64,000 nt of DNA from the NCBI GenBank assembly GCA_964575865.1, contig CAZNSZ010000003.1, forward strand, positions 27,266 to 91,265, given 5' to 3'. Position numbers and translations under genes: made by a program. Source of the stretch: an uncultured Bacteroides sp. GTDB taxonomy: Bacteria; Bacteroidota; Bacteroidia; Bacteroidales; GCA-2748055. The notes under the pieces are model-generated. The model had not been told where the DNA came from. It worked only from the letters and a program-made list of their open reading frames with translations, and did no database searches. Below are positions 43,479 to 52,528 of the stretch, in pieces (position 1 is the first letter of the stretch; each line of letters starts with the position of its first letter).

Positions 43479-46352
43479 ATGAAGTCCGAACCGTTTAGCA
43501 GCCGACACCTGGGACCCCGTGATGAGGAGGTCAGGGAGATGCTGAAAGTGATTGGAGTACCTTCCGTAGAGAAGCTCGTGGAGCGAACCATTCCCGCATC
43601 CATATACCAGGATACCCCCCTCCGGCTTCCGGAAGGAGTGGAGGAACATGCCTACCTTGAACAGCTGAGGGAAACAGCATCGAAGAACAGCCTTTTTAAA
43701 ACATACATCGGTCTCGGATACTACAACACCCACCTGCCTCCGGTCATCCAGCGCAATATCCTGGAGAATCCCAACTGGTATACCTCGTACACCCCTTACC
43801 AGGCTGAGATCTCACAGGGAAGACTGGAAGCACTGCTGAACTTTCAGACCATGGTGATGGAACTCACCGGGATGGAAATTGCCAATGCATCCCTTCTCGA
43901 TGAAGCCACCGCTGCCGCAGAGGCAATGATCATGCTCTTCAATGCGCGGTCGAGGTCTGCCATCAATGAGGGCCGTGTCCGATTCCTGGTGGACGAGAAC
44001 ATTTTTCCGCAGACGAAAAGCGTCCTGGAAACCAGGGCAGCACCGCTTGGGATTGATCTGGTACAGGTCTCCGCCGGGGAAGAAGCCCTGGATCCGCTGA
44101 TGTTCGGGTGTCTGCTCCAGTATCCCGGCGGGGATGGTCAGCTGAAGGACCACGGGCCGTTTACGGCAAAGGCCCGGGAGATGGGCGTTTCCGTGGCCGT
44201 GGCTGCGGACCTGATGAGCCTGGTGCTGGTCACTCCCCCCGGCGAATGGGGTGCCGATGTGGTGGTGGGAAGTTCTCAGCGTTTCGGGATCCCCATGTTC
44301 TACGGCGGACCCCATGCAGCATTCTTTGCCACCCGTGAAACGTACAAACGGTTCATTCCGGGAAGGATCATCGGGGTCTCCATCGATATGTACGAGAAGC
44401 CGGCCCTCCGGATGGCCCTGCAAACCAGGGAACAGCATATCAAGAGGGAGAGGGCCACCTCCAACATCTGTACGGCCCAGGCACTGCTGGCAAGCATGGC
44501 AGGGATGTACGGGGTATACCATGGTCCCGGGGGACTGAAACGGATCGCCACCAACATCCATTCAGGGACCTGCTACCTGGCCTCCCAGTTGAAAGAACTG
44601 GGCTACCGGATCGTACACGAAAGCTTCTTTGATACTCTGCGCATAGCTCTTCCGGAAGGCCTCGATTCGGAGGCCCTGAGGTCCATTGCAGAGGAGAAGG
44701 AGATCAATCTCTATTACCCGGATGAGGGCCATGTGCAGCTGTCCACGGACGAATCGGCCACTGTGGAAAGACTCAATGCAATCCTTGAGGTCTTCTCCAT
44801 AGCGGTACAGAAAGGGATCCACTTCCGGGAGCAGGTGGACCCTGTTACAGGATTCGATCCCTCACTGGCAAGGAAAACCTCCTTCATGAACCAGAAGGTT
44901 TTCCACCAGTACAGGTCCGAAACTGAACTGATGCGCTACATCCGTAAACTGGAGAAAAGGGATATTTCGCTGACGCAATCGATGATATCCCTCGGTTCAT
45001 GTACCATGAAACTGAATGCGGCGGCACAGCTCTTTCCGGTCTCCTGGCCGGAATTCGCCTCCGTTCATCCCTTCGTACCCATCACCCAGACGGAGGGCTA
45101 CCACCAGCTTATTCATGAGCTGGAGCATGCACTGAAAGAGATCACCGGCTTTGATACCATCTCGTTCCAGCCCAACTCAGGTGCTTCGGGCGAGTATACC
45201 GGCCTGATGGTGATCCAGGCCTACCATGCGGACCACGGAGACCTGCAGCGGAAAGTGGTCCTGATCCCGGCGTCGGCCCATGGCACCAATCCGGCCAGTG
45301 CGGTAATGGCCGGCCTGGATGTGAAGGTGGTCCGGTGCGACGAACGGGGAAACATCGATACGGATCACCTCAGACAGCTGGCCGGCGAAGCGGGAGATAC
45401 GCTCTCCTCGATCATGATCACCTACCCCTCCACCCATGGTGTGTTTGAAGAGAATATCCGGGAGATCATTGATGTGGTGCATGCCCACGGCGGACAGGTC
45501 TACATGGACGGGGCCAACATGAATGCACAGGTGGGGCTCACCAGTCCGGCCCATATTGGGGCGGATGTCTGTCACCTGAACCTCCATAAAACCTTTGCCA
45601 TACCCCATGGAGGCGGAGGACCCGGCGTGGGGCCCATCGGGGTGGCCAATCACCTGGTGGAATACCTCCCCACCCATCCGCTGGTGGAAACCGGAGGGAT
45701 CAGGGGCATCGGCAGCGTCTCAGCCGCCCCCTACGGCAGCGCGGGTATCCTGGCGATTTCACATGCCTATATCCGGCTTCTGGGCGGAAAGGGACTGACC
45801 GAAGCGACCCGCATGGCGATCCTGAATGCCAACTACGTGGCCGCCTCCCTGAAGGATCACTACGACATCCTTTACACCGGAAAGAACGGGACCGTGGCAC
45901 ATGAAATGATCCTCGATTGCAGGAAATTCAAAACCCTGGCAGATATCACTGAAGCCGATATCGCCAAACGCCTGATGGATTATGGCTTCCATGCCCCCAC
46001 CCTCTCGTTCCCGGTACATGGGACGCTGATGATGGAACCCACCGAGAGCGAATCGAAAGCGGAGCTGGACCGGTTCATCGAGGCCATGATCGATATCCAC
46101 CGGGATATCATGGAGATCGCAGAAGGGAAAGTGAAGGCAGGTGAAAGTGTGCTGCGTTACGCCCCCCATACGGCCGGGGTGCTGATGGGGGATGAATGGG
46201 ACAGGCCCTATTCCAGGAAAAAGGCTGCCTTCCCGCTCCCCTGGGTGGAAGAGAACAAATTCTGGCCCTACGTGAGCCGCATCAATGACGGGTACGGTGA
46301 CCGCAACCTGGTCTGTTCCTGTGAACCGATCGAAGCATACGGAGAACACTGA
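43479..46352 (+). CDS. gcvP: glycine dehydrogenase (decarboxylating), single-chain P protein
   Basis: 957 aa. Segments NWYTSYTPYQAEISQGRLEALLNFQ and LHKTFAIPHGGGGPG (PLP lysine region). Confidence 0.95.
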   Translation: MKSEPFSSRHLGPRDEEVREMLKVIGVPSVEKLVERTIPASIYQDTPLRLPEGVEEHAYLEQLRETASKNSLFKTYIGLGYYNTHLPPVIQRNILENPNWYTSYTPYQAEISQGRLEALLNFQTMVMELTGMEIANASLLDEATAAAEAMIMLFNARSRSAINEGRVRFLVDENIFPQTKSVLETRAAPLGIDLVQVSAGEEALDPLMFGCLLQYPGGDGQLKDHGPFTAKAREMGVSVAVAADLMSLVLVTPPGEWGADVVVGSSQRFGIPMFYGGPHAAFFATRETYKRFIPGRIIGVSIDMYEKPALRMALQTREQHIKRERATSNICTAQALLASMAGMYGVYHGPGGLKRIATNIHSGTCYLASQLKELGYRIVHESFFDTLRIALPEGLDSEALRSIAEEKEINLYYPDEGHVQLSTDESATVERLNAILEVFSIAVQKGIHFREQVDPVTGFDPSLARKTSFMNQKVFHQYRSETELMRYIRKLEKRDISLTQSMISLGSCTMKLNAAAQLFPVSWPEFASVHPFVPITQTEGYHQLIHELEHALKEITGFDTISFQPNSGASGEYTGLMVIQAYHADHGDLQRKVVLIPASAHGTNPASAVMAGLDVKVVRCDERGNIDTDHLRQLAGEAGDTLSSIMITYPSTHGVFEENIREIIDVVHAHGGQVYMDGANMNAQVGLTSPAHIGADVCHLNLHKTFAIPHGGGGPGVGPIGVANHLVEYLPTHPLVETGGIRGIGSVSAAPYGSAGILAISHAYIRLLGGKGLTEATRMAILNANYVAASLKDHYDILYTGKNGTVAHEMILDCRKFKTLADITEADIAKRLMDYGFHAPTLSFPVHGTLMMEPTESESKAELDRFIEAMIDIHRDIMEIAEGKVKAGESVLRYAPHTAGVLMGDEWDRPYSRKKAAFPLPWVEENKFWPYVSRINDGYGDRNLVCSCEPIEAYGEH

Positions 46353-46435
46353 TCCGTGCGGATTCACCGGCCCGTAGAGTTGTTAATAAGTCCCCTGTTA
46401 TTGGGAATTTGAAGCCCCGTTCGTACCTTGCGGTC

Positions 46436-47398
46436 ATGATGCACCAGGGATACAGGGTATTCTTCTTTTTTATCGCGGCGCTCCTTTTTGTTACACCTGC
46501 GCAAGTCCTCCCTCAGGGACCTGAAACCGGTGACCCGGGAACCGTCTCTGACTCCATCCTGGAACAACAGCGGGATTCGATGCTTTTCAACCTGAACCTG
46601 AGGTATCTGAACGGCGTCAACGAGCACCGTTCCCCGTTCGAACTGATCCCCATCATCGAAGAGATCCTTGAACTCGATCCCGGCTTGTACCACCAGTGGT
46701 TCAACCTGGGTATGGAGTACATCAAGATCAAAGAGTATTACCTGGCCGCCGATGCGCTGAACAAGGGTCTGGAACGCTATCCGGCGGAACAGATGGCTAC
46801 CCTGGAACAGATCTACATCAGCCTCAGTTTCTGCTATCACAAGACAGAGAGGCATCAGAAGGAGCATGAGATCCTCGATATGCTTTCGGAATACCACCCC
46901 CACGGGCCCGCCATCCTCGGCCGTTACCTGATCTGTGCCCATTACCGCATGCGGTTCACCGAGGAGGAGGCATACAGGGACCAGCTGGTTTCGGTTCTCC
47001 GGGATAAACGGGTGAATGAATCGGATATCGCTTATTACCTGGGCAGGCTCTACCTGAATGAGGATTATCTGGAAGCAGAAAAATACTTCTCCATTGCCTA
47101 TCATTATGATCCGGAGAATGTGGAAAAGATGGGGTCATTGGCCTGGGTACTGATCATGAACGCGCTGCGGATCGATGAAGGCATGGCCCTTATGAAAAAA
47201 GCGATCGAAGCGGATCCGGACAATGCCATCTACATCCACCAGATGGGATACGGGTATTACATCAAGGGAAAATATGAGGTTGCCCTGGAAAACCTTTACG
47301 CCGCGAGGGACCTTTACCAGGAATACAGTTTCGAACTGGACAACCACATCCGCCTGGTGGAAGAAGCCATTGCGCTCCTGGAAGACCAGTCCATCTGA
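46436..47398 (+). CDS. TPR-repeat protein (secreted)
   Basis: Signal-like N-terminus and several TPR-like 34-aa repeats (WFNLGMEYIKIKEYYLAADALNKGLE, etc.). Confidence 0.55.
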   Translation: MMHQGYRVFFFFIAALLFVTPAQVLPQGPETGDPGTVSDSILEQQRDSMLFNLNLRYLNGVNEHRSPFELIPIIEEILELDPGLYHQWFNLGMEYIKIKEYYLAADALNKGLERYPAEQMATLEQIYISLSFCYHKTERHQKEHEILDMLSEYHPHGPAILGRYLICAHYRMRFTEEEAYRDQLVSVLRDKRVNESDIAYYLGRLYLNEDYLEAEKYFSIAYHYDPENVEKMGSLAWVLIMNALRIDEGMALMKKAIEADPDNAIYIHQMGYGYYIKGKYEVALENLYAARDLYQEYSFELDNHIRLVEEAIALLEDQSI

Positions 47399-47414: not shown

Positions 47415-47828
47415 TCAGACAAGTGCCCTGATCACCCCCTTCAGATCACTTTCCCGGCTGAAGATCTGGTAAACCGTACATTCCCTGCAATTCTCGTTGC
47501 GGCATACCCTCCCTTTCTCAGAAGCTTCCCAGCAGGGAAAGGAGGAAGCCATATAGGCATTGCAGCCTGCCCGGTCCTCCACACTGCACGGACGAAGGGC
47601 CCAGCAGGGCACAATGGCCATCAGCGCCCTGATCCCGGCAAAATTCAGCCCCTTTTCATGGATCATGGTATGGATCTGCTTTAACCGCGCAATATCCTGG
47701 TCTGAAAAGAGGTGGCGTTTCGACTCGCGTTTGAAGGGGATCAGAAGGCCCCTGTCGATATACTGCCGGATGGAATGCGCCGGGATCCCCGATAACTGTG
47801 CGGTAACACCGAGGGTATAGACCGGCAT
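47415..47828 (-). CDS. MerR-family regulator with Cys-rich C-terminal domain
   Basis: MPVYTLGVTAQLSGIPAHSIRQYIDRGLL is a MerR HTH. The C-terminal 50 aa contain 7 Cys (CWALRPC...C...C...C..C..C). The ORF track start at 47876 would add 16 aa. Confidence 0.7.
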   Translation of the reverse strand: MPVYTLGVTAQLSGIPAHSIRQYIDRGLLIPFKRESKRHLFSDQDIARLKQIHTMIHEKGLNFAGIRALMAIVPCWALRPCSVEDRAGCNAYMASSFPCWEASEKGRVCRNENCRECTVYQIFSRESDLKGVIRALV

Positions 47829-47880
47829 CTGTTTTTCCCTGGCCGATTCCTGAGGATGCTGGATTTCTGTAATCATGATT

Positions 47881-47905
47881 CTTATTTAATAACAGTCTAA
47901 ATAAG
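47881..47905. promoter_or_regulatory. perfect 8-bp inverted repeat CTTATTTA-N9-TAAATAAG (candidate operator)
   Basis: Read directly from the sequence. It lies in the AT-rich divergent intergenic region between the MerR gene and the cytochrome operon. Confidence 0.35.
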
Positions 47906-48005
47906 CTGTGAATTAGGCAATTAATATAATGAAACGAATTGATAACCCAATATTATTCTGTATTATTATTCACATCTTATATGTATTATTCAATACAGTT
48001 TATAT

Positions 48006-48461
48006 ATGCCACCACAACTAAAACGCCTGATTCCCATCTTCATTGTATTCGTCGGTCTGTTCCTGCTGGTGCGCCATTTTCTGATACCTGAATCATTCGG
48101 CCAGTATGGCCACTACCGTGGAGATGCCCTCAATGAAATAGCGGCCCAGGAAAAAAGGGTCGCCAGCAAAGCGATGTGTGTGGAGTGTCACTGGGACGTG
48201 CAGGAAGTGATCGAAAATGACGTACACGCGGCGCTTTCCTGCATCATCTGTCATGGTGAGGGGCTGGCCCACACAGAAGAACCCTCGGCCGATAATATTG
48301 AGAAGCTCACCGAACGGGCACTCTGCCTGAAATGCCATCAGCTGAATCCCGCACGTCCGGCCGAGGTGGTCTTCCAGGTCGACCCGGTCACCCACAATCC
48401 TGAATTCGAGAATTGTTCCGATTGTCATCACCCGCATCAAGTATGGGAGGGACTCCAATGA
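48006..48461 (+). CDS. membrane-anchored tetraheme cytochrome c
   Basis: N-terminal TM helix and four CxxCH motifs (CVECH, CIICH, CLKCH, CSDCH). Confidence 0.8.
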   Translation: MPPQLKRLIPIFIVFVGLFLLVRHFLIPESFGQYGHYRGDALNEIAAQEKRVASKAMCVECHWDVQEVIENDVHAALSCIICHGEGLAHTEEPSADNIEKLTERALCLKCHQLNPARPAEVVFQVDPVTHNPEFENCSDCHHPHQVWEGLQ

Positions 48462-49210
48462 AATCATCCAGGCGAAAATTCATGAAGGCCTCTTCGGCCG
48501 CTGCCGGTGCCATCCTGCTGACCTCGGCCATAAAACCGTTCCAAATGCTGCTCATGGCCTCTGATCCTCCCCCGGAGGAGGGCCCCTGGTGGGGGGTCGG
48601 GATCGATATCACACAGTGCATCGGGTGCGGAATGTGCGCGAAGGGCTGCAAGATGGAAAACGACGTCCCTGACGAGCCCTTTTATTTCAGGACCTGGGTG
48701 GAACAGTATACCATTCTCCACGACGGGGAGGTGCTGATCCAGTCCCCCAACGGAAGCATCGACGGTTTCACCCAGCCGGTCCCCGAAGAGGAGATCTTCA
48801 AGACCTTTTTCGTCCCCAAAATGTGCAACCACTGCGCCAAATCCCCCTGTACCCAGGTGTGCCCGGTGGGAGCCACCTTTGAAAGTCCTGACGGGGTGGC
48901 GCTGGTGGATGAAAAGTATTGCATCGGTTGCGCCTATTGCGTCCAGGCATGTCCTTACGGCTGCCGGTACATCCATCCTGAAAAGAAAGTGGCCGATAAA
49001 TGTACCCTCTGTTACCACCGGCTCAAGGAGGGTACCGATCCGGTCTGCATGGAAATCTGTCCCACCGGGGCCAGGTTATATGGTGACCTGCGTGACAGGG
49101 AAAGCAAGCTTGTGAAATTCTTGCGCGAACACGACTACCAGGTCCTGAAGCCGCACCTCAATACGGGATCTAAATTATTCTATAACGCGCTCACCGCAGA
49201 AATCAGCTGA
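48458..49210 (+). CDS. Tat-exported 4x[4Fe-4S] ferredoxin subunit (NrfC/PsrB/DsrO-like)
   Basis: Twin-arginine signal SRRKFMK. Four Cys clusters: CIGCGMCAKGC, CNHCAKSPCTQVCP, CIGCAYCVQACP and CTLC...CMEICP. The ATG overlaps the cytochrome stop (ATGA). Confidence 0.8.
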   Translation: MKSSRRKFMKASSAAAGAILLTSAIKPFQMLLMASDPPPEEGPWWGVGIDITQCIGCGMCAKGCKMENDVPDEPFYFRTWVEQYTILHDGEVLIQSPNGSIDGFTQPVPEEEIFKTFFVPKMCNHCAKSPCTQVCPVGATFESPDGVALVDEKYCIGCAYCVQACPYGCRYIHPEKKVADKCTLCYHRLKEGTDPVCMEICPTGARLYGDLRDRESKLVKFLREHDYQVLKPHLNTGSKLFYNALTAEIS

Positions 49211-49211
49211 T

Positions 49212-50411
49212 ATGGACCACACGCAACACCTCTATGACATGCTCTCCCAGGTGGAAGGATACATCTACCCCAACGAGATTGCCCTCCAGTGGGGGATCCT
49301 GGTGGTCCTTTATCCTTACATCACCGGGCTGGTAGCCGGGGCCTTCATCCTGGCCTCACTTGAACGCGTGTTCAAGGTCAAAGTTCTCCGTCCCACCTAT
49401 CAACTGGCACTGCTCACCGCACTCGCCTTCCTGATATGCGCCCCGCTGCCCCTGGTCTCCCATCTGGGACAGCCGGGCCGCGCCTACGAGATCATGATCA
49501 CCCCCCATGCCAAATCGGCCATGGCCATCTTCGGATTCGTCTACCTCTGGTACCTGATGGTGGTCCTGTTGCTGGAGATCTGGTTCGATTACCGGGCCGA
49601 TTTTGTTCGCTGGTCGAAGGAAAAAACCGGGTTCATGAAGCATGTCTACCGGGTGCTGAGCCTCGGGGTCAGCGACCTCTCGCCAAGGACAATCAGCTGG
49701 GACGAACGGCTGGGCTACATCATCACCATCATAGGGATCCCGTCCGCCTTCCTCCTGCACGGGTATGTGGGATTCATTTTCGGGTCCATCAAAGCCAACC
49801 CCTGGTGGTCCACCGTGCTGATGCCTGTGATCTTCCTCTTCTCTGCCATGGTCTCCGGCATCGCCCTGGTGATGGTCCTCTACATGGCGGTTTCTGCGAT
49901 CCGCAAAGTGAAAATCGACATGGCCTGCCTCGATATGGTGGGCAGGTATCTCTTTTACATGCTGATCCTCGACTTCGCCCTCGAATCCCTTGACCAGGTG
50001 CACCGGATCTACGAAGCAGAGGAATCGTTCGATATCCTCCACGTCCTGGTGAACGGCAGGCTGAACTACACCCTGTTCGGATTCCAGATCGGCCTCGGGA
50101 CCCTGGTACCGCTGATTGCCCTGGGGATCCTTCAGGTAACCAAAATGGAAGAACGCATCCGGAAAACCATCTACCTGGCTTCCGGCATCCTGGTGCTGAT
50201 GGGGATCTTTTTCATGCGCTGGAATGTGGTAATCGGCGGCCAGCTCTTTTCCAAAGGCTTCCACGGATTCACCGATTTCAAACTTTCCCTTGCCGGTTCC
50301 GAGGGCCTTTTCATGGCCATCATGTGGATGGCCCTGCCCTTCGGCATCCTGGCATTCCTGCTCTGGCTGATGCCTCCATGGAAAAAACAGGAAGCCCTCT
50401 CTGAACCCTAA
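49212..50411 (+). CDS. NrfD/PsrC-family integral membrane quinone-interacting subunit
   Basis: 399 aa with ~10 TM helices. It starts 1 nt after the NrfC-like stop, and its size and position are typical of NrfD-like subunits. Confidence 0.65.
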   Translation: MDHTQHLYDMLSQVEGYIYPNEIALQWGILVVLYPYITGLVAGAFILASLERVFKVKVLRPTYQLALLTALAFLICAPLPLVSHLGQPGRAYEIMITPHAKSAMAIFGFVYLWYLMVVLLLEIWFDYRADFVRWSKEKTGFMKHVYRVLSLGVSDLSPRTISWDERLGYIITIIGIPSAFLLHGYVGFIFGSIKANPWWSTVLMPVIFLFSAMVSGIALVMVLYMAVSAIRKVKIDMACLDMVGRYLFYMLILDFALESLDQVHRIYEAEESFDILHVLVNGRLNYTLFGFQIGLGTLVPLIALGILQVTKMEERIRKTIYLASGILVLMGIFFMRWNVVIGGQLFSKGFHGFTDFKLSLAGSEGLFMAIMWMALPFGILAFLLWLMPPWKKQEALSEP

Positions 50412-50424
50412 AAAACACTCCCGG

Positions 50425-52107
50425 ATGAAAGCACCACCCGAACATCTTGACCACCGGCTGGAGGAACTCCGGCAGCGGATAGAGGAGCTGGAGCAACGGG
50501 TCGGGCAACTGGAAGCCGGCTCCCCGGTCAGTGAACCCTCCTTCACCGTCAGGATCGCTGCTGATCCAGAAGAGGATGACCGGCAGCTGAAAAAGAGCAG
50601 TGCAGAGCCCGTCGAATCGGTGGAATCCCGGATAGGCGAGTACGGCATGGCCTGGCTGGGCAACTTTGTGCTGCTTTTCGGGATCCTTTTCCTCACACAG
50701 TTCCTCCGGATCAGGGAGCAGGAGCTGCTGTCCCTTGTCCTGGGACTCGTTTCAGTTGCTGCCGTTTACCTTGCAGGGTACCTGACCCGGCCCTCCTTTC
50801 CCTACCTGTCGGGATTGTTCGGATACAATGGCCACATCCTGCTCTTCATGATTGCCATGCAGGTCTATCTCCTTCCCGGGAACCGGCTGACCGGCAATGC
50901 GTTGATCGGAGAAGGCATTGTGCTTGCAGTGATCGGCGTCATGTTTTACCTCACCCTGAAAAGGGAGTCCCAGGTGCTCGCCATCATCACCTGGATCATG
51001 GCCACGGTGGCAGCCATTGCCAGTAACCAGACCCACCTGATGCTCCCGCTGATGGTGGCAGTGGCATGGAGTGCCCTCTTTGTGACCTACCGGTACAACT
51101 GGGGGGCCGCTCTGATCACTTCCGTTATACTGGTCTATTTTACCTTCCTGATCTGGATCCTGGGAGATCCCTTTGTGACCCATCAGACCGGCGTCATCAC
51201 CTCCCACCAGTTCAGTTTCCTGTACCTTTTTGCATGTGCGATGGCGTACACCTTCCTGACCGTGCTCCCCCGGTCGGAACGTTTCAAAGAGGGGACGATC
51301 AATGCTGCCATACTCCTGAACGGAATGGGCTTTTCCACCATCCTGACCATTTCGGTACTGGCCTTCTTTCCCGATGACTATTTCCTTCTGTTCGGTGTGA
51401 TCGCAGCATGCTGCATGGGATTCGCCGTCTGGTTGCAGTCCCGTGGTGTATGGAAAAGGATTTCCGCCCTGTACGCCATATACGGCTTCATCGCACTGAG
51501 TATATGCGTGGCGGGGGCATTCGGATTCCCCAGGGCATTTCTGGCGCTGGCACTGCAGAGCCTGCTGGTAGTATCGGTTGCCCTCTGGTTCCGCTCACGG
51601 TTCATGGTGGTCATGAACACCCTCCTGGTGCTCGGATTGCTGATCACCTACCTTGCCCTGCCTGAAAATGAACACCCGGTCAATTTCAGCTTCGCCCTGG
51701 TGGCACTGGTGACTGCAAGGGTGTTGAACTGGAAAAAGAAAAGGCTGGAGATCCGGACCGAACTGATCCGGAACACCTATCTCATCACCGGGGCTTCCGT
51801 ATGGCTGTACAGCCTGCACGAAGTCATCCCGGCCCATTTCATTTCACTCTCCTGGGTGTTGTCGGCAGTGGTATTTTTCCTGCTCAGCCTTCTGCTGCAT
51901 AACATCAAGTACCGCTGGCTGGCCATCGGGACCATGATCGTTACCGTATTCTATGTGTTCATCGTGGACCTGAAGAGCATCAGCCTGGGATACCGGGTTG
52001 TGGCATTGCTGCTGATCGCTGTCATCTCCCTCAGCATCTCCATATTCTATTCCAGGAAGCTTAAAAATGATCCTGACGGAAAGGGGAAGCCGGATCCGGC
52101 CCCTTAG
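50425..52107 (+). CDS. polytopic membrane protein with N-terminal coiled coil (DUF2339-like)
   Basis: LEELRQRIEELEQRVGQLE followed by 12 or more hydrophobic helices. Lies 13 nt after the NrfD-like gene. Confidence 0.45.
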   Translation: MKAPPEHLDHRLEELRQRIEELEQRVGQLEAGSPVSEPSFTVRIAADPEEDDRQLKKSSAEPVESVESRIGEYGMAWLGNFVLLFGILFLTQFLRIREQELLSLVLGLVSVAAVYLAGYLTRPSFPYLSGLFGYNGHILLFMIAMQVYLLPGNRLTGNALIGEGIVLAVIGVMFYLTLKRESQVLAIITWIMATVAAIASNQTHLMLPLMVAVAWSALFVTYRYNWGAALITSVILVYFTFLIWILGDPFVTHQTGVITSHQFSFLYLFACAMAYTFLTVLPRSERFKEGTINAAILLNGMGFSTILTISVLAFFPDDYFLLFGVIAACCMGFAVWLQSRGVWKRISALYAIYGFIALSICVAGAFGFPRAFLALALQSLLVVSVALWFRSRFMVVMNTLLVLGLLITYLALPENEHPVNFSFALVALVTARVLNWKKKRLEIRTELIRNTYLITGASVWLYSLHEVIPAHFISLSWVLSAVVFFLLSLLLHNIKYRWLAIGTMIVTVFYVFIVDLKSISLGYRVVALLLIAVISLSISIFYSRKLKNDPDGKGKPDPAP

Positions 52108-52114
52108 GTCCTGA

Positions 52115-52528
52115 TCAGCTCCCTGTGGTTTCCTCCTCAGGCATGGGCTCCACTGCAGCCCTGGATTCCTTCGCCGGTTTCGGCGAATCCGCATTCCTGG
52201 GGGAGAGAAACAGGAAATTGTCACAGACGATCTCCGTACTGAAATGGCGGTTCCCTTCCGGGTCCTCCCAGGAGTTGGTGGAAATTTTCCCTTCCACATA
52301 AAGGGCATCCCCTTTTTTCACATGCTGTTTCACGATCTCGGCAGGCCGGTTCCAGACCACAATCCGGTGCCATTCGGTCCGACGCACCTCCTCCCCTTCC
52401 TTATCCTTCCAGACCTCGTTGGTGGCCAGCGGGAAGTTGGCCACAAAAGCCTGGCCGTCCCGTTCGGACACGCGGGGGGCCTCACCCACGTTCCCTACGA
52501 GCGTTACTCTGTTTACACCATATTTCAT
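52115..52528 (-). CDS. ssb: single-stranded DNA-binding protein
   Basis: OB-fold N-terminus MKYGVNRVTLVGNVG...TEWHRIVVWN. The C-terminus ends PEEETTGS, without a canonical D-D-(I/L)-P-F tip. Confidence 0.85.
   Translation of the reverse strand: MKYGVNRVTLVGNVGEAPRVSERDGQAFVANFPLATNEVWKDKEGEEVRRTEWHRIVVWNRPAEIVKQHVKKGDALYVEGKISTNSWEDPEGNRHFSTEIVCDNFLFLSPRNADSPKPAKESRAAVEPMPEEETTGS

Follow-up and report, generated by a model that had tools for sequence, protein, structure and literature searches.

A probable optional Cbc4-type respiratory unit in a genus of sediment Bacteroidota

Introduction

The Cbc4 complex of Geobacter sulfurreducens consists of CbcS, CbcT and CbcU, encoded by GSU0068-0070 (bioRxiv 10.1101/2025.04.14.648717; PMC13591261). 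CbcS is a membrane-anchored protein of 160 amino acid (AA) residues with an anchor (residues 1-29), a linker (residues 30-58) and four bis-His haems, CbcT carries four [4Fe-4S] clusters and CbcU is the integral membrane subunit (bioRxiv 10.1101/2025.04.14.648717). Electron transfer from reduced CbcS to PpcA has been demonstrated in vitro (bioRxiv 10.1101/2025.04.14.648717; PMC13591261); the redox window of CbcS, -302 to +19 mV, overlaps that of its partners, and the exchange with PpcA is incomplete, with electrons redistributing between both proteins (PMC13591261). Cbc complexes are modelled as quinol oxidases in the Geobacter literature (bioRxiv 10.1101/2025.04.14.648717; PMC13591261), and Cbc4-type complexes represent one of several predicted quinol-to-periplasm gateways in metal-respiring bacteria. 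Here we analyse a stretch of 64,000 nucleotides (nt) from an uncultured Bacteroides sp. (assembly GCA_964575865.1, contig CAZNSZ010000003.1), referred to as the window, in which an anchored tetrahaem cytochrome c, an exported iron-sulfur (FeS) protein and an NrfD-like membrane protein are encoded side by side. We propose, with a probability of roughly 0.7, that the five genes at 47415-52107 make up an optional respiratory unit in a genus of sediment Bacteroidota, and that the trio among them is a Cbc4-type quinol dehydrogenase feeding periplasmic cytochromes.

Cbc4 had been named and CbcS studied in vitro before this work, and the underlying biochemistry is what known NrfCD-type modules would lead one to expect. 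What is new here is the presence or absence of five genes as one unit, its association with multihaem cytochromes, natural fusions of CbcU with NHL propellers and a regulator with seven invariant cysteine residues.

Results

The locus and its kinship with Geobacter Cbc4

The block opens with a gene on the minus strand (47415-47876), encoding a 153-AA regulator with a MerR_1 helix-turn-helix and a Cys-rich tail (Cys7 regulator). An AT-rich divergent control region of 129 bp (47877-48005) separates it from the genes of a CbcS-like tetrahaem cytochrome c (48006-48461, 151 AA), a CbcT-like FeS protein with a twin-arginine (Tat) signal and four [4Fe-4S] motifs (48458-49210, 250 AA), a CbcU-like membrane subunit of the NrfD family (49212-50411, 399 AA) and a DUF2339-like fourth protein (50425-52107, 560 AA), all on the plus strand. 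An earlier reading of this DNA, made from the letters without database searches (the sequence-only reading), had listed the first four open reading frames (ORFs), all of which are present; its assignment of an anchored tetrahaem cytochrome, a Tat-exported four-cluster ferredoxin and an NrfD-like subunit is borne out by the CxxCH motifs, the Cys motifs and the Pfam NrfD match. The two translational couplings it described can be seen directly in the sequence, as an ATGA overlap of the cytochrome and FeS genes at 48458-48461 and as a 1-nt gap at 49211 between the FeS and NrfD-like genes (TGA t ATG, 49208-49214). The right-hand limit that it set at 50411 was too short, having overlooked the co-oriented fourth gene, which starts 13 nt after the NrfD-like stop codon.

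Geobacterales genomes were found via a PpcA search and then searched with the NrfD-like protein of the window. The best matches belong to operons whose cytochrome is anchored, tetrahaem and 160-168 AA long, and which also encode a Tat FeS protein and an NrfD-like protein; identities to the window proteins are 30-35% (cytochrome), 43-44% (FeS) and 39-42% (NrfD-like). These are close relatives of G. sulfurreducens rather than the sequences of strain PCA itself, and their labelling as Cbc4 rests on the 160-AA cytochrome with Tyr63: the cytochrome of locus L165 is exactly 160 AA long and has Tyr63 just ahead of its first CxxCH motif, as the preprint gives for CbcS. Reciprocal best hits hold in both directions between the NrfD-like proteins. 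Within the whole 4.7-Mb assembly, the Geobacterales cytochrome and membrane proteins match only the genes of the window, and for the FeS protein the gene of the window is the best match by far.

In a maximum-likelihood tree of NrfD-like proteins, the window protein falls in a clade of Bacteroidota, Chlorobiota, WOR-1 and Verrucomicrobia sequences (support 96/96) that is sister to a Geobacterales CbcU clade (100/100). The joint clade (92/99) sits on a long branch, apart from E. coli NrfD, HybB, DmsC, other Geobacterales paralogues and the ActC and ActF proteins of the same genome; two rows of the tree (L170 and L179) are wrong-frame ORFs and were disregarded. The phylogenetic placement proposed in the sequence-only reading was thus obtained for the NrfD-like subunit, as sister to Geobacterales CbcU, in a tree whose references were Geobacterales sequences, E. 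coli NrfD, HybB and DmsC, and ActC and ActF of the same genome. An insertion between cluster motifs I and II of the FeS protein is common to the window and Geobacterales CbcT and is missing in E. coli NrfC, and all three subunit features of Cbc4, an anchored tetrahaem cytochrome, an exported four-cluster FeS protein and a CbcU-like membrane subunit, are found in the window. The tree, the reciprocal best hits and the common signatures together show the module to be, as judged by sequence comparison, an orthologue of Geobacter Cbc4 (CbcS/CbcT/CbcU). The sequence-only reading had likened the trio to the electron-transfer cores of several larger complexes. The stand-alone cytochrome/FeS/NrfD core stands, but it belongs to the named Cbc4 family, which has the same three-subunit architecture; the module therefore does lie inside a described complex, although one that is poorly characterised and has no known catalytic partner.

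Related modules were encountered alongside. A second Cbc4-like copy in a Geobacterales genome (G001, contig C69; L166:4058-11108) lies directly upstream of genes for a dihaem cytochrome c and narG. In some Bacteroidota and one Geobacter, a paralogous module of cytochrome (199-213 AA), FeS protein (308 AA) and NrfD-like protein (405-430 AA) adjoins the Cbc4-type one (L191:5236-7954; L187:3153-5871; L169:2958-5866, the last in Geobacter argillaceus), and at L187 it fills the site between gcvP and ssb in place of the window's type, beside the same regulator family.

Gain and loss of the five-gene block

In the window the block is flanked on the left by gcvP (43479-46352), with a TPR gene (46409-47398) in between, and on the right by ssb (52115-52528, minus strand). 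All eight module-negative congeners that were fetched have gcvP followed directly by ssb, one of them with the TPR gene in between, showing that the regulator, the trio and the DUF2339-like gene come and go together as one block of about 4.7 kb. The TPR gene varies separately: L002, L064 and the module-negative L214 have it, and most other congeners lack it, with gcvP bordering directly on the regulator or ssb.

The distribution of the unit is patchy. It was detected in 9 of 401 sampled genomes of the phylum and in 18 of 49 species of the window's genus, and was missing from the 33 other genomes of the order that were sampled, one per family. Mapped on a gcvP tree of 41 congeners, its presence and absence require at least 11 changes. 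In five congeners (G446, G418, G431, G442 and G423) the NrfD-like gene contains in-frame stop codons, in some of them together with neighbouring genes, which may reflect decay of an optional unit or errors of long-read assembly. Beyond the genus, Cbc4-type modules at 55-86% identity occur in sediment Bacteroidota, Chlorobiota, WOR-1, Verrucomicrobia and cultured marine Flavobacteriaceae.

A protein-guided scan with one genome per species gave 67 related loci from Bacteroidales, Flavobacteriaceae (Lutibacter, Gaetbulibacter and Yeosuana), Chlorobiota, WOR-1 and Verrucomicrobia. The cytochrome, FeS and NrfD genes keep the same order in every locus where the contig reaches far enough. All-against-all clustering of the ORFs of the 67 loci revealed no universally recurring gene beyond the core trio and no catalytic subunit; the fourth gene was found in 31 loci and the regulator in 12, while other neighbours are lineage-specific (response regulators, housekeeping genes and further cytochromes). 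The survey for a recurring partner that the sequence-only reading had suggested thus left only the trio as universal, and its statement that no catalytic subunit lies adjacent holds for the window and extends to the 67 loci. The boundaries of the unit, its patchy distribution and the absence of a conserved catalytic neighbour are direct observations.

In Flavobacteriaceae, one or two tandem copies of another four-gene module adjoin the Cbc4-like trio (L026:7250-13105 and L034:7250-13161, from Gaetbulibacter and Yeosuana; also L019:23-4496). It encodes a Tat FeS protein (327 AA), an NrfD-like protein (445 AA) that groups with ActC/ActF, a protein of 300 AA that has a C-terminal helix and matches nothing in Pfam, and a monohaem cytochrome c (132 AA), and it looks like another uncharacterised quinol:cytochrome c module.

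Subunits of the predicted complex

The CbcS-like cytochrome contains one N-terminal hydrophobic helix (approximately residues 9-27), which would anchor it in the membrane. The linker behind it spans some 28 AA, and the cytochrome domain, with four CxxCH motifs, some 95 AA. A P28-x2-F31-G32 motif after the anchor is invariant across the Bacteroidota and Geobacterales sequences. Among the candidate distal ligands, H74, H130 and H144 are invariant and H89 is found in most sequences, a conservation that is consistent with bis-His ligation of the haems. The NrfH/CymA-like haem core reported for CbcS comes from the preprint (bioRxiv 10.1101/2025.04.14.648717) and was not confirmed by our model, which matched NrfH in Foldseek with an E value of 0.7 and a TM-score of 0.34 only.

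The FeS protein begins with MKSSRRKFMK, including the signal SRRKFMK, of which R5, R6 and F8 are invariant among orthologues; the Pfam TAT_signal match is weak (17.6 bits, under the cut-off of 22.7). Alignment of the orthologues revealed 16 invariant Cys residues in four cluster motifs, the Pfam Fer4_11 score is 84 bits, and the nearest solved relative is PsrB (2vpw_B, 4.9e-44). The NrfD-like subunit scores 120 bits with Pfam NrfD (cut-off 25.8), has about eight hydrophobic helices and no cofactor motifs, and presumably provides the menaquinol site. Neither its sequence nor a 14-sequence family profile found any solved structure at E <= 10, PsrC included, and thus no structural template can be named. 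The subfamily comprises 228 clusters (50% identity) at E <= 1e-30 among 1.84 billion representative proteins searched. Three natural fusions of CbcU-like domains were encountered (P0249 at L255:6001-8373, P0338 and P0243), two with a C-terminal NHL beta-propeller and one with a FAD-linked oxidase domain; the latter might be an artefact of gene calling or assembly.

The DUF2339-like protein opens with a heptad/coiled-coil segment, which an acidic linker joins to a membrane part of roughly 14 or more transmembrane helices. Geobacterales proteins of 618-624 AA, encoded after cbcU at L167 and facing it at L169, share this N-terminal coiled coil and match Pfam DUF2339 (PF10101) with 55.7 bits. Their window counterpart is likely to be a diverged homologue of DUF2339, as far as profile and sequence comparison suggest. 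In two phyla the fourth gene is found repeatedly behind cbcU, and it belongs to the indel unit; its product is probably an accessory subunit or an assembly or anchoring partner of the complex.

A divergent regulator with seven invariant cysteines

The sequence-only reading had described the divergent gene as a MerR helix-turn-helix joined to a C-terminal domain with seven Cys residues, and this was confirmed. Pfam MerR_1 matches with 54 bits over approximately residues 18-87, a winged helix-turn-helix of the MerR superfamily, and a tail of 60 AA follows directly, with its Cys residues at positions 91, 97, 105, 115, 125, 130 and 133. All seven are 100% conserved in 121 homologues with the spacing C-x5-C-x7-C-x9-C-x9-C-x4-C-x2-C, together with two P-C-W motifs. 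The only Protein Data Bank (PDB) matches of the DNA-binding part are GlnR/TnrA (profile positions 11-86), and the nearest curated family, HspR, stays below its cut-off; the Cys tail has no PDB match, and a Pfam scan of the isolated tail gave a chance-level hit only.

Known families were tried as candidates and rejected: HspR (53 versus 105 bits), MerD (26 versus 104), CueR (21 versus 147) and ZntR (19 versus 168). The Bacteroidota MerR-like iron regulator MliR of Bizionia was also rejected as the family of this protein because it has no effector domain and no cysteines (PMC9478572). No characterised sensor family, SoxR included, matched the Cys pattern; a match to one is what the sequence-only reading had named as counting against it.

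Two dyads are found in the control region. The first (47881-47905, CTTATTTA-N9-TAAATAAG) adjoins the start of the regulator gene, and the second is a 16-bp palindrome (47982-47997, TGTATTATTCAATACA) 8 nt before the cytochrome ATG, with a half-copy upstream of it (47959-47967, TGTATTATT). Both dyads recur in the intergenic regions of L001, L002, L006, L053, L064, L191 and L192, and the first also in L009 and L187. Judged by position and conservation, they may be operators bound by the regulator, which probably uses them to switch the operon when it senses a metal, Fe-S or redox signal. A scan for sigma-70-type promoters gave four sites against a shuffled mean of 3.1, which is not above expectation, with a consensus that is uninformative for Bacteroidota promoters.

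Three more distant homologues of the regulator are encoded beside a paralogous cytochrome/FeS/NrfD module, between two such modules and beside a dihaem cytochrome c, respectively, a context from which the family seems to be tied to c-type cytochrome genes. At L189 (4897-6441), a 63%-identical Cys7 regulator is divergent from the gene of a 300-AA dihaem cytochrome c and not from an NrfCD module, indicating that the regulator family is wider than the Cbc4-type unit.

Multihaem cytochromes as candidate clients

Multihaem cytochromes are numerous in the genome of the window and have as many as 20 CxxCH motifs. One cluster combines a 19-haem protein, fused to an FdnI-like cytochrome b, with a DUF5777 beta-barrel protein, a rhodanese, lipoprotein cytochromes and a Crp-type regulator, and in a second cluster 11-, 8-, 5- and 4-haem cytochromes are interleaved with NHL beta-propellers; 13- and 20-haem proteins and a CydA-like domain fused to an 8-haem domain are also encoded. 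The multihaem regions lie at C16:34000-50000 (L204), C2:1-12000 (L205), C20:4000-14000 (L206) and C32:34676-37327 (L201), and the clusters hint at a conduit for outward electron transfer in this Bacteroidota genome. Several NapC/NrfH-like proteins, NrfHA and a complete operon for alternative complex III (ACIII), ActABCDEF, on contig C6 complete the inventory. An orphan pair of a Tat FeS protein and an NrfD-like protein that groups with HybB was also noticed in this genome (C73:9688-12639, L203); it continues with a 244-AA membrane protein and a sensor kinase/response regulator pair, and no hydrogenase or cytochrome gene adjoins it.

Across the 49 species of the genus, and with p values that, here and below, take no account of shared ancestry, the 19-haem/cytochrome b fusion is found in 17/18 module-positive and 16/31 module-negative congeners (p = 0.0035), the 11-haem/NHL cluster in 16/18 and 10/31 (p = 0.00024) and NrfA in 7/18 and 17/31 (p = 0.38). 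Among genomes from outside the genus, 9 of 40 with the module encode an 11-haem homologue, as opposed to 5 of 392 without the module (p = 3e-7). The 11-haem cluster is thus a frequent companion of the module. In two representative clusters a CbcU-like protein is fused to a C-terminal NHL propeller, in one case inside a cytochrome-FeS-CbcU operon, and the only homologues of the fused propeller in the genome of the window are the two NHL genes of the 11-haem cluster. Most likely, the large multihaem-cytochrome clusters would be the clients of the module in this genome.

Comparison with curated models of known complexes

The trio was compared with curated families of complexes containing similar subunits, and each was rejected. 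For NrfBCD, the scores are 147 bits against 377.6 (NrfC) and 46 against 347.6 (NrfD), and an anchored tetrahaem cytochrome takes the place of the soluble pentahaem NrfB. For DsrMKJOP, DsrO reaches 169 bits against 200 and DsrP 35 against 350, with no dsrMK-like genes in any of the 67 loci. QrcABCD and ACIII, which have a penta- or hexahaem cytochrome, were set aside with QrcC at 82 bits against 400 and no molybdopterin-like QrcB/ActB1 in or near the operon; the ActC and ActF proteins of the genome itself fall in a different clade of the NrfD tree from the window protein. Molybdoenzymes of the Ttr, Psr and Arr types failed likewise (TtrB 198 against 416, TtrC 21 against 314, ArrB 128 against 450), and no molybdopterin gene is adjacent.

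Discussion

Electron flow and alternative explanations

In the proposed mechanism, menaquinol would be oxidised at the NrfD-like subunit near the periplasmic face, and the electrons would travel through the Tat-exported subunit, from one to the next of its four [4Fe-4S] clusters. The membrane-tethered cytochrome would take them up on its chain of four bis-His haems and may hand them on to soluble or multihaem periplasmic cytochromes. Since the complex itself contains no enzyme active site, the module would act as a quinol dehydrogenase branch point comparable to CymA, SirCD, CbcL or ImcH, possibly as an extra branch for the multihaem network. The direction of flow, the identity of the acceptor and the coupling to energy conservation are each conditional parts of this scheme.

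Several points weigh against the proposal. According to a 2026 review, what Cbc3, Cbc4 and Cbc6 do physiologically is still unknown, and a Geobacter cbcS mutant reduced Fe(III) and Mn(IV) normally (PMC13591261). All sequencing runs found to hold the window sequence are DNA metagenomes, with no RNA data among them. The AlphaFold2 model of the cytochrome, from a 12-sequence alignment, has a mean predicted local distance difference test (pLDDT) score of 68, a low confidence, and a Foldseek search with it returned nothing at E < 0.1; in the model of the regulator, pLDDT stays below 50 across the Cys-rich tail. The fourth protein of the window scores 5.5 bits with DUF2339 and its relative at L016 21.7, under the cut-off of 33.6, and profile-profile alignment with hhalign is weak (probability 41%, E 2.7e-4, 264 columns). 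As for the clients, a phylogeny-aware test on the gcvP tree had only six well-supported independent contrasts and is underpowered (median p = 0.125); its direction is consistent, the 11-haem cluster going with the module in 4.6 of the 6 contrasts on average and the opposite way in 0.2. Finally, 31 of the 40 module-positive genomes outside the genus, for example Yeosuana and one Gaetbulibacter, have no 11-haem homologue, and the 11-haem cluster therefore cannot be an obligatory partner.

Among the alternatives, the one that survives best, although unlikely, is that the same complex runs in reverse, as a Qrc-like cytochrome c:menaquinone reductase bringing electrons from periplasmic donors (hydrogen, formate, reduced cytochromes of the periplasm or the cell exterior, or Fe(II)) into the quinone pool. 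Direction is not fixed by sequence alone, NrfD/NrfC dimers run either way in different complexes (PMC8076601), and the redox properties of CbcS, with a window overlapping those of its partners and an incomplete exchange with PpcA that leaves electrons spread over both proteins (PMC13591261), would suit such a reversal. However, no periplasmic hydrogenase or formate dehydrogenase recurs beside the module, Cbc complexes are treated as quinol oxidases in the Geobacter literature, and the companion clusters look outward, with their lipoprotein multihaem cytochromes and beta-barrel DUF5777 protein.

A terminal reductase encoded elsewhere would be another way to account for the missing catalytic subunit. 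On this explanation the module is the dedicated quinol dehydrogenase of one unlinked periplasmic enzyme, as in NrfBCD with NrfA or in MccCD/SirCD with sulfite reductase. The genome does encode NrfA (632 bits, cut-off 595), but its gene lies on another contig (C166) with its own adjacent nrfH, and NrfA does not track the module (7/18 versus 17/31). The architecture is closest to Nrf(B)CD and SirCD, and a Geobacterales paralogous copy stands directly upstream of a dihaem cytochrome and narG (L166), whereas the NrfC and NrfD cut-offs are missed widely (147/378 and 46/348) and no reductase gene recurs in the 67 neighbourhoods. On these neighbourhoods and on NrfA, the reductase that was compared for co-occurrence, we consider this explanation quite improbable.

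The cultured aerobic or facultative Lutibacter, Gaetbulibacter and Yeosuana carry an NrfD-like protein at 70-72% identity, and in the latter two the module adjoins FeS/NrfD/monohaem modules whose NrfD subunits group with ActC/ActF. A stripped-down ACIII that feeds haem-copper oxidases under aerobic or microaerobic conditions would explain these aerobic marine carriers. Nevertheless, the genome of the window already has a complete ActABCDEF, CbcU is phylogenetically far from ActC/ActF, and the module was found in 9 of 401 genomes of the phylum as opposed to ACIII in 76% of Bacteroidetes species (PMC8076601), which together leave this option very improbable. A DsrJOP-like module for sulfite or sulfur redox chemistry, for which the identical layout of DsrJ/DsrO/DsrP, the score of 169 bits on DsrO, near its 200-bit cut-off, and the rhodanese in one companion cluster could be adduced, is hardly tenable and largely refuted by the failure of the curated Dsr models (DsrP 35 versus 350, the DsrO cut-off missed), with no dsrMK adjacent in any locus and Geobacterales CbcSTU as the best reciprocal relatives.

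We return to the Cbc4-type quinol dehydrogenase as the preferred reading. A more far-reaching picture, which we hold to be rather unlikely as a whole, would combine its parts: a self-contained add-on, repeatedly gained and lost, under the control of a new class of Cys7 Fe-S or metal redox sensor built on a GlnR/TnrA-like domain, with the DUF2339-like protein as a true fourth subunit and the complex docking on NHL-propeller/multihaem assemblies, as hinted by the CbcU-NHL fusions, to serve as the inner-membrane entry of a Geobacter-like extracellular electron-transfer route in sediment Bacteroidota.

The presence/absence polymorphism inside one genus offers a ready comparative design, and the cultured Lutibacter, Gaetbulibacter and Yeosuana are hosts outside Geobacter whose quinol dehydrogenases are less redundant and where a knockout might give a visible phenotype. 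Two further handles are provided by a DUF2339-type protein that is repeatedly tied to a respiratory complex, which if true would be the first role for that large family as a fourth subunit, and by a seven-Cys regulator family tied to c-type cytochrome genes.

Comparison with known systems

Similar to SoxR, CueR, ZntR and MerR, the regulator has an N-terminal winged helix-turn-helix, is divergent from the operon that it would control and has dyads in the intergenic region. Its Cys spacing is unlike the CX2CXCX5C of SoxR, and the effector cysteines of known MerR sensors are located at the end of the dimerisation helix, whereas the seven-Cys tail of the window regulator starts at residue 91, immediately behind the match to the winged helix-turn-helix.

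DsrJOP, QrcABCD and ACIII resemble the module in combining an anchored multihaem cytochrome, a four-cluster FeS protein and an NrfD-like subunit as a periplasm-facing core. Unlike DsrMKJOP, Qrc and ACIII, the module comes without DsrMK, without QrcB/ActB1 and without the extra ACIII subunits, and a genuine ACIII is encoded elsewhere in the genome. SirCD, MccCD and NrfBCD likewise use an FeS/NrfD dimer to connect the quinol pool with c-type cytochromes of the periplasm, and the SirCD pair of Shewanella can substitute for the general quinol dehydrogenase CymA (cited in PMC11434368). These modules, however, are encoded with their own reductases, SirA, MccA or NrfA; NrfB is a soluble pentahaem protein, and E. 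coli NrfD lies outside the CbcU clade.

The closest system is Cbc4, which has the same three subunits and gene order, an anchored tetrahaem cytochrome of about 150-170 AA, the PxxFG motif, the FeS insertion and no catalytic subunit, followed in some Geobacterales operons by a DUF2339 protein with an N-terminal coiled coil. In contrast to Geobacter Cbc4, the module described here belongs to another phylum, at 30-44% identity, has a fourth gene far more diverged from Pfam DUF2339, stands under a divergent Cys7 regulator that is lacking at the Geobacterales loci examined, and comes as an optional indel unit.

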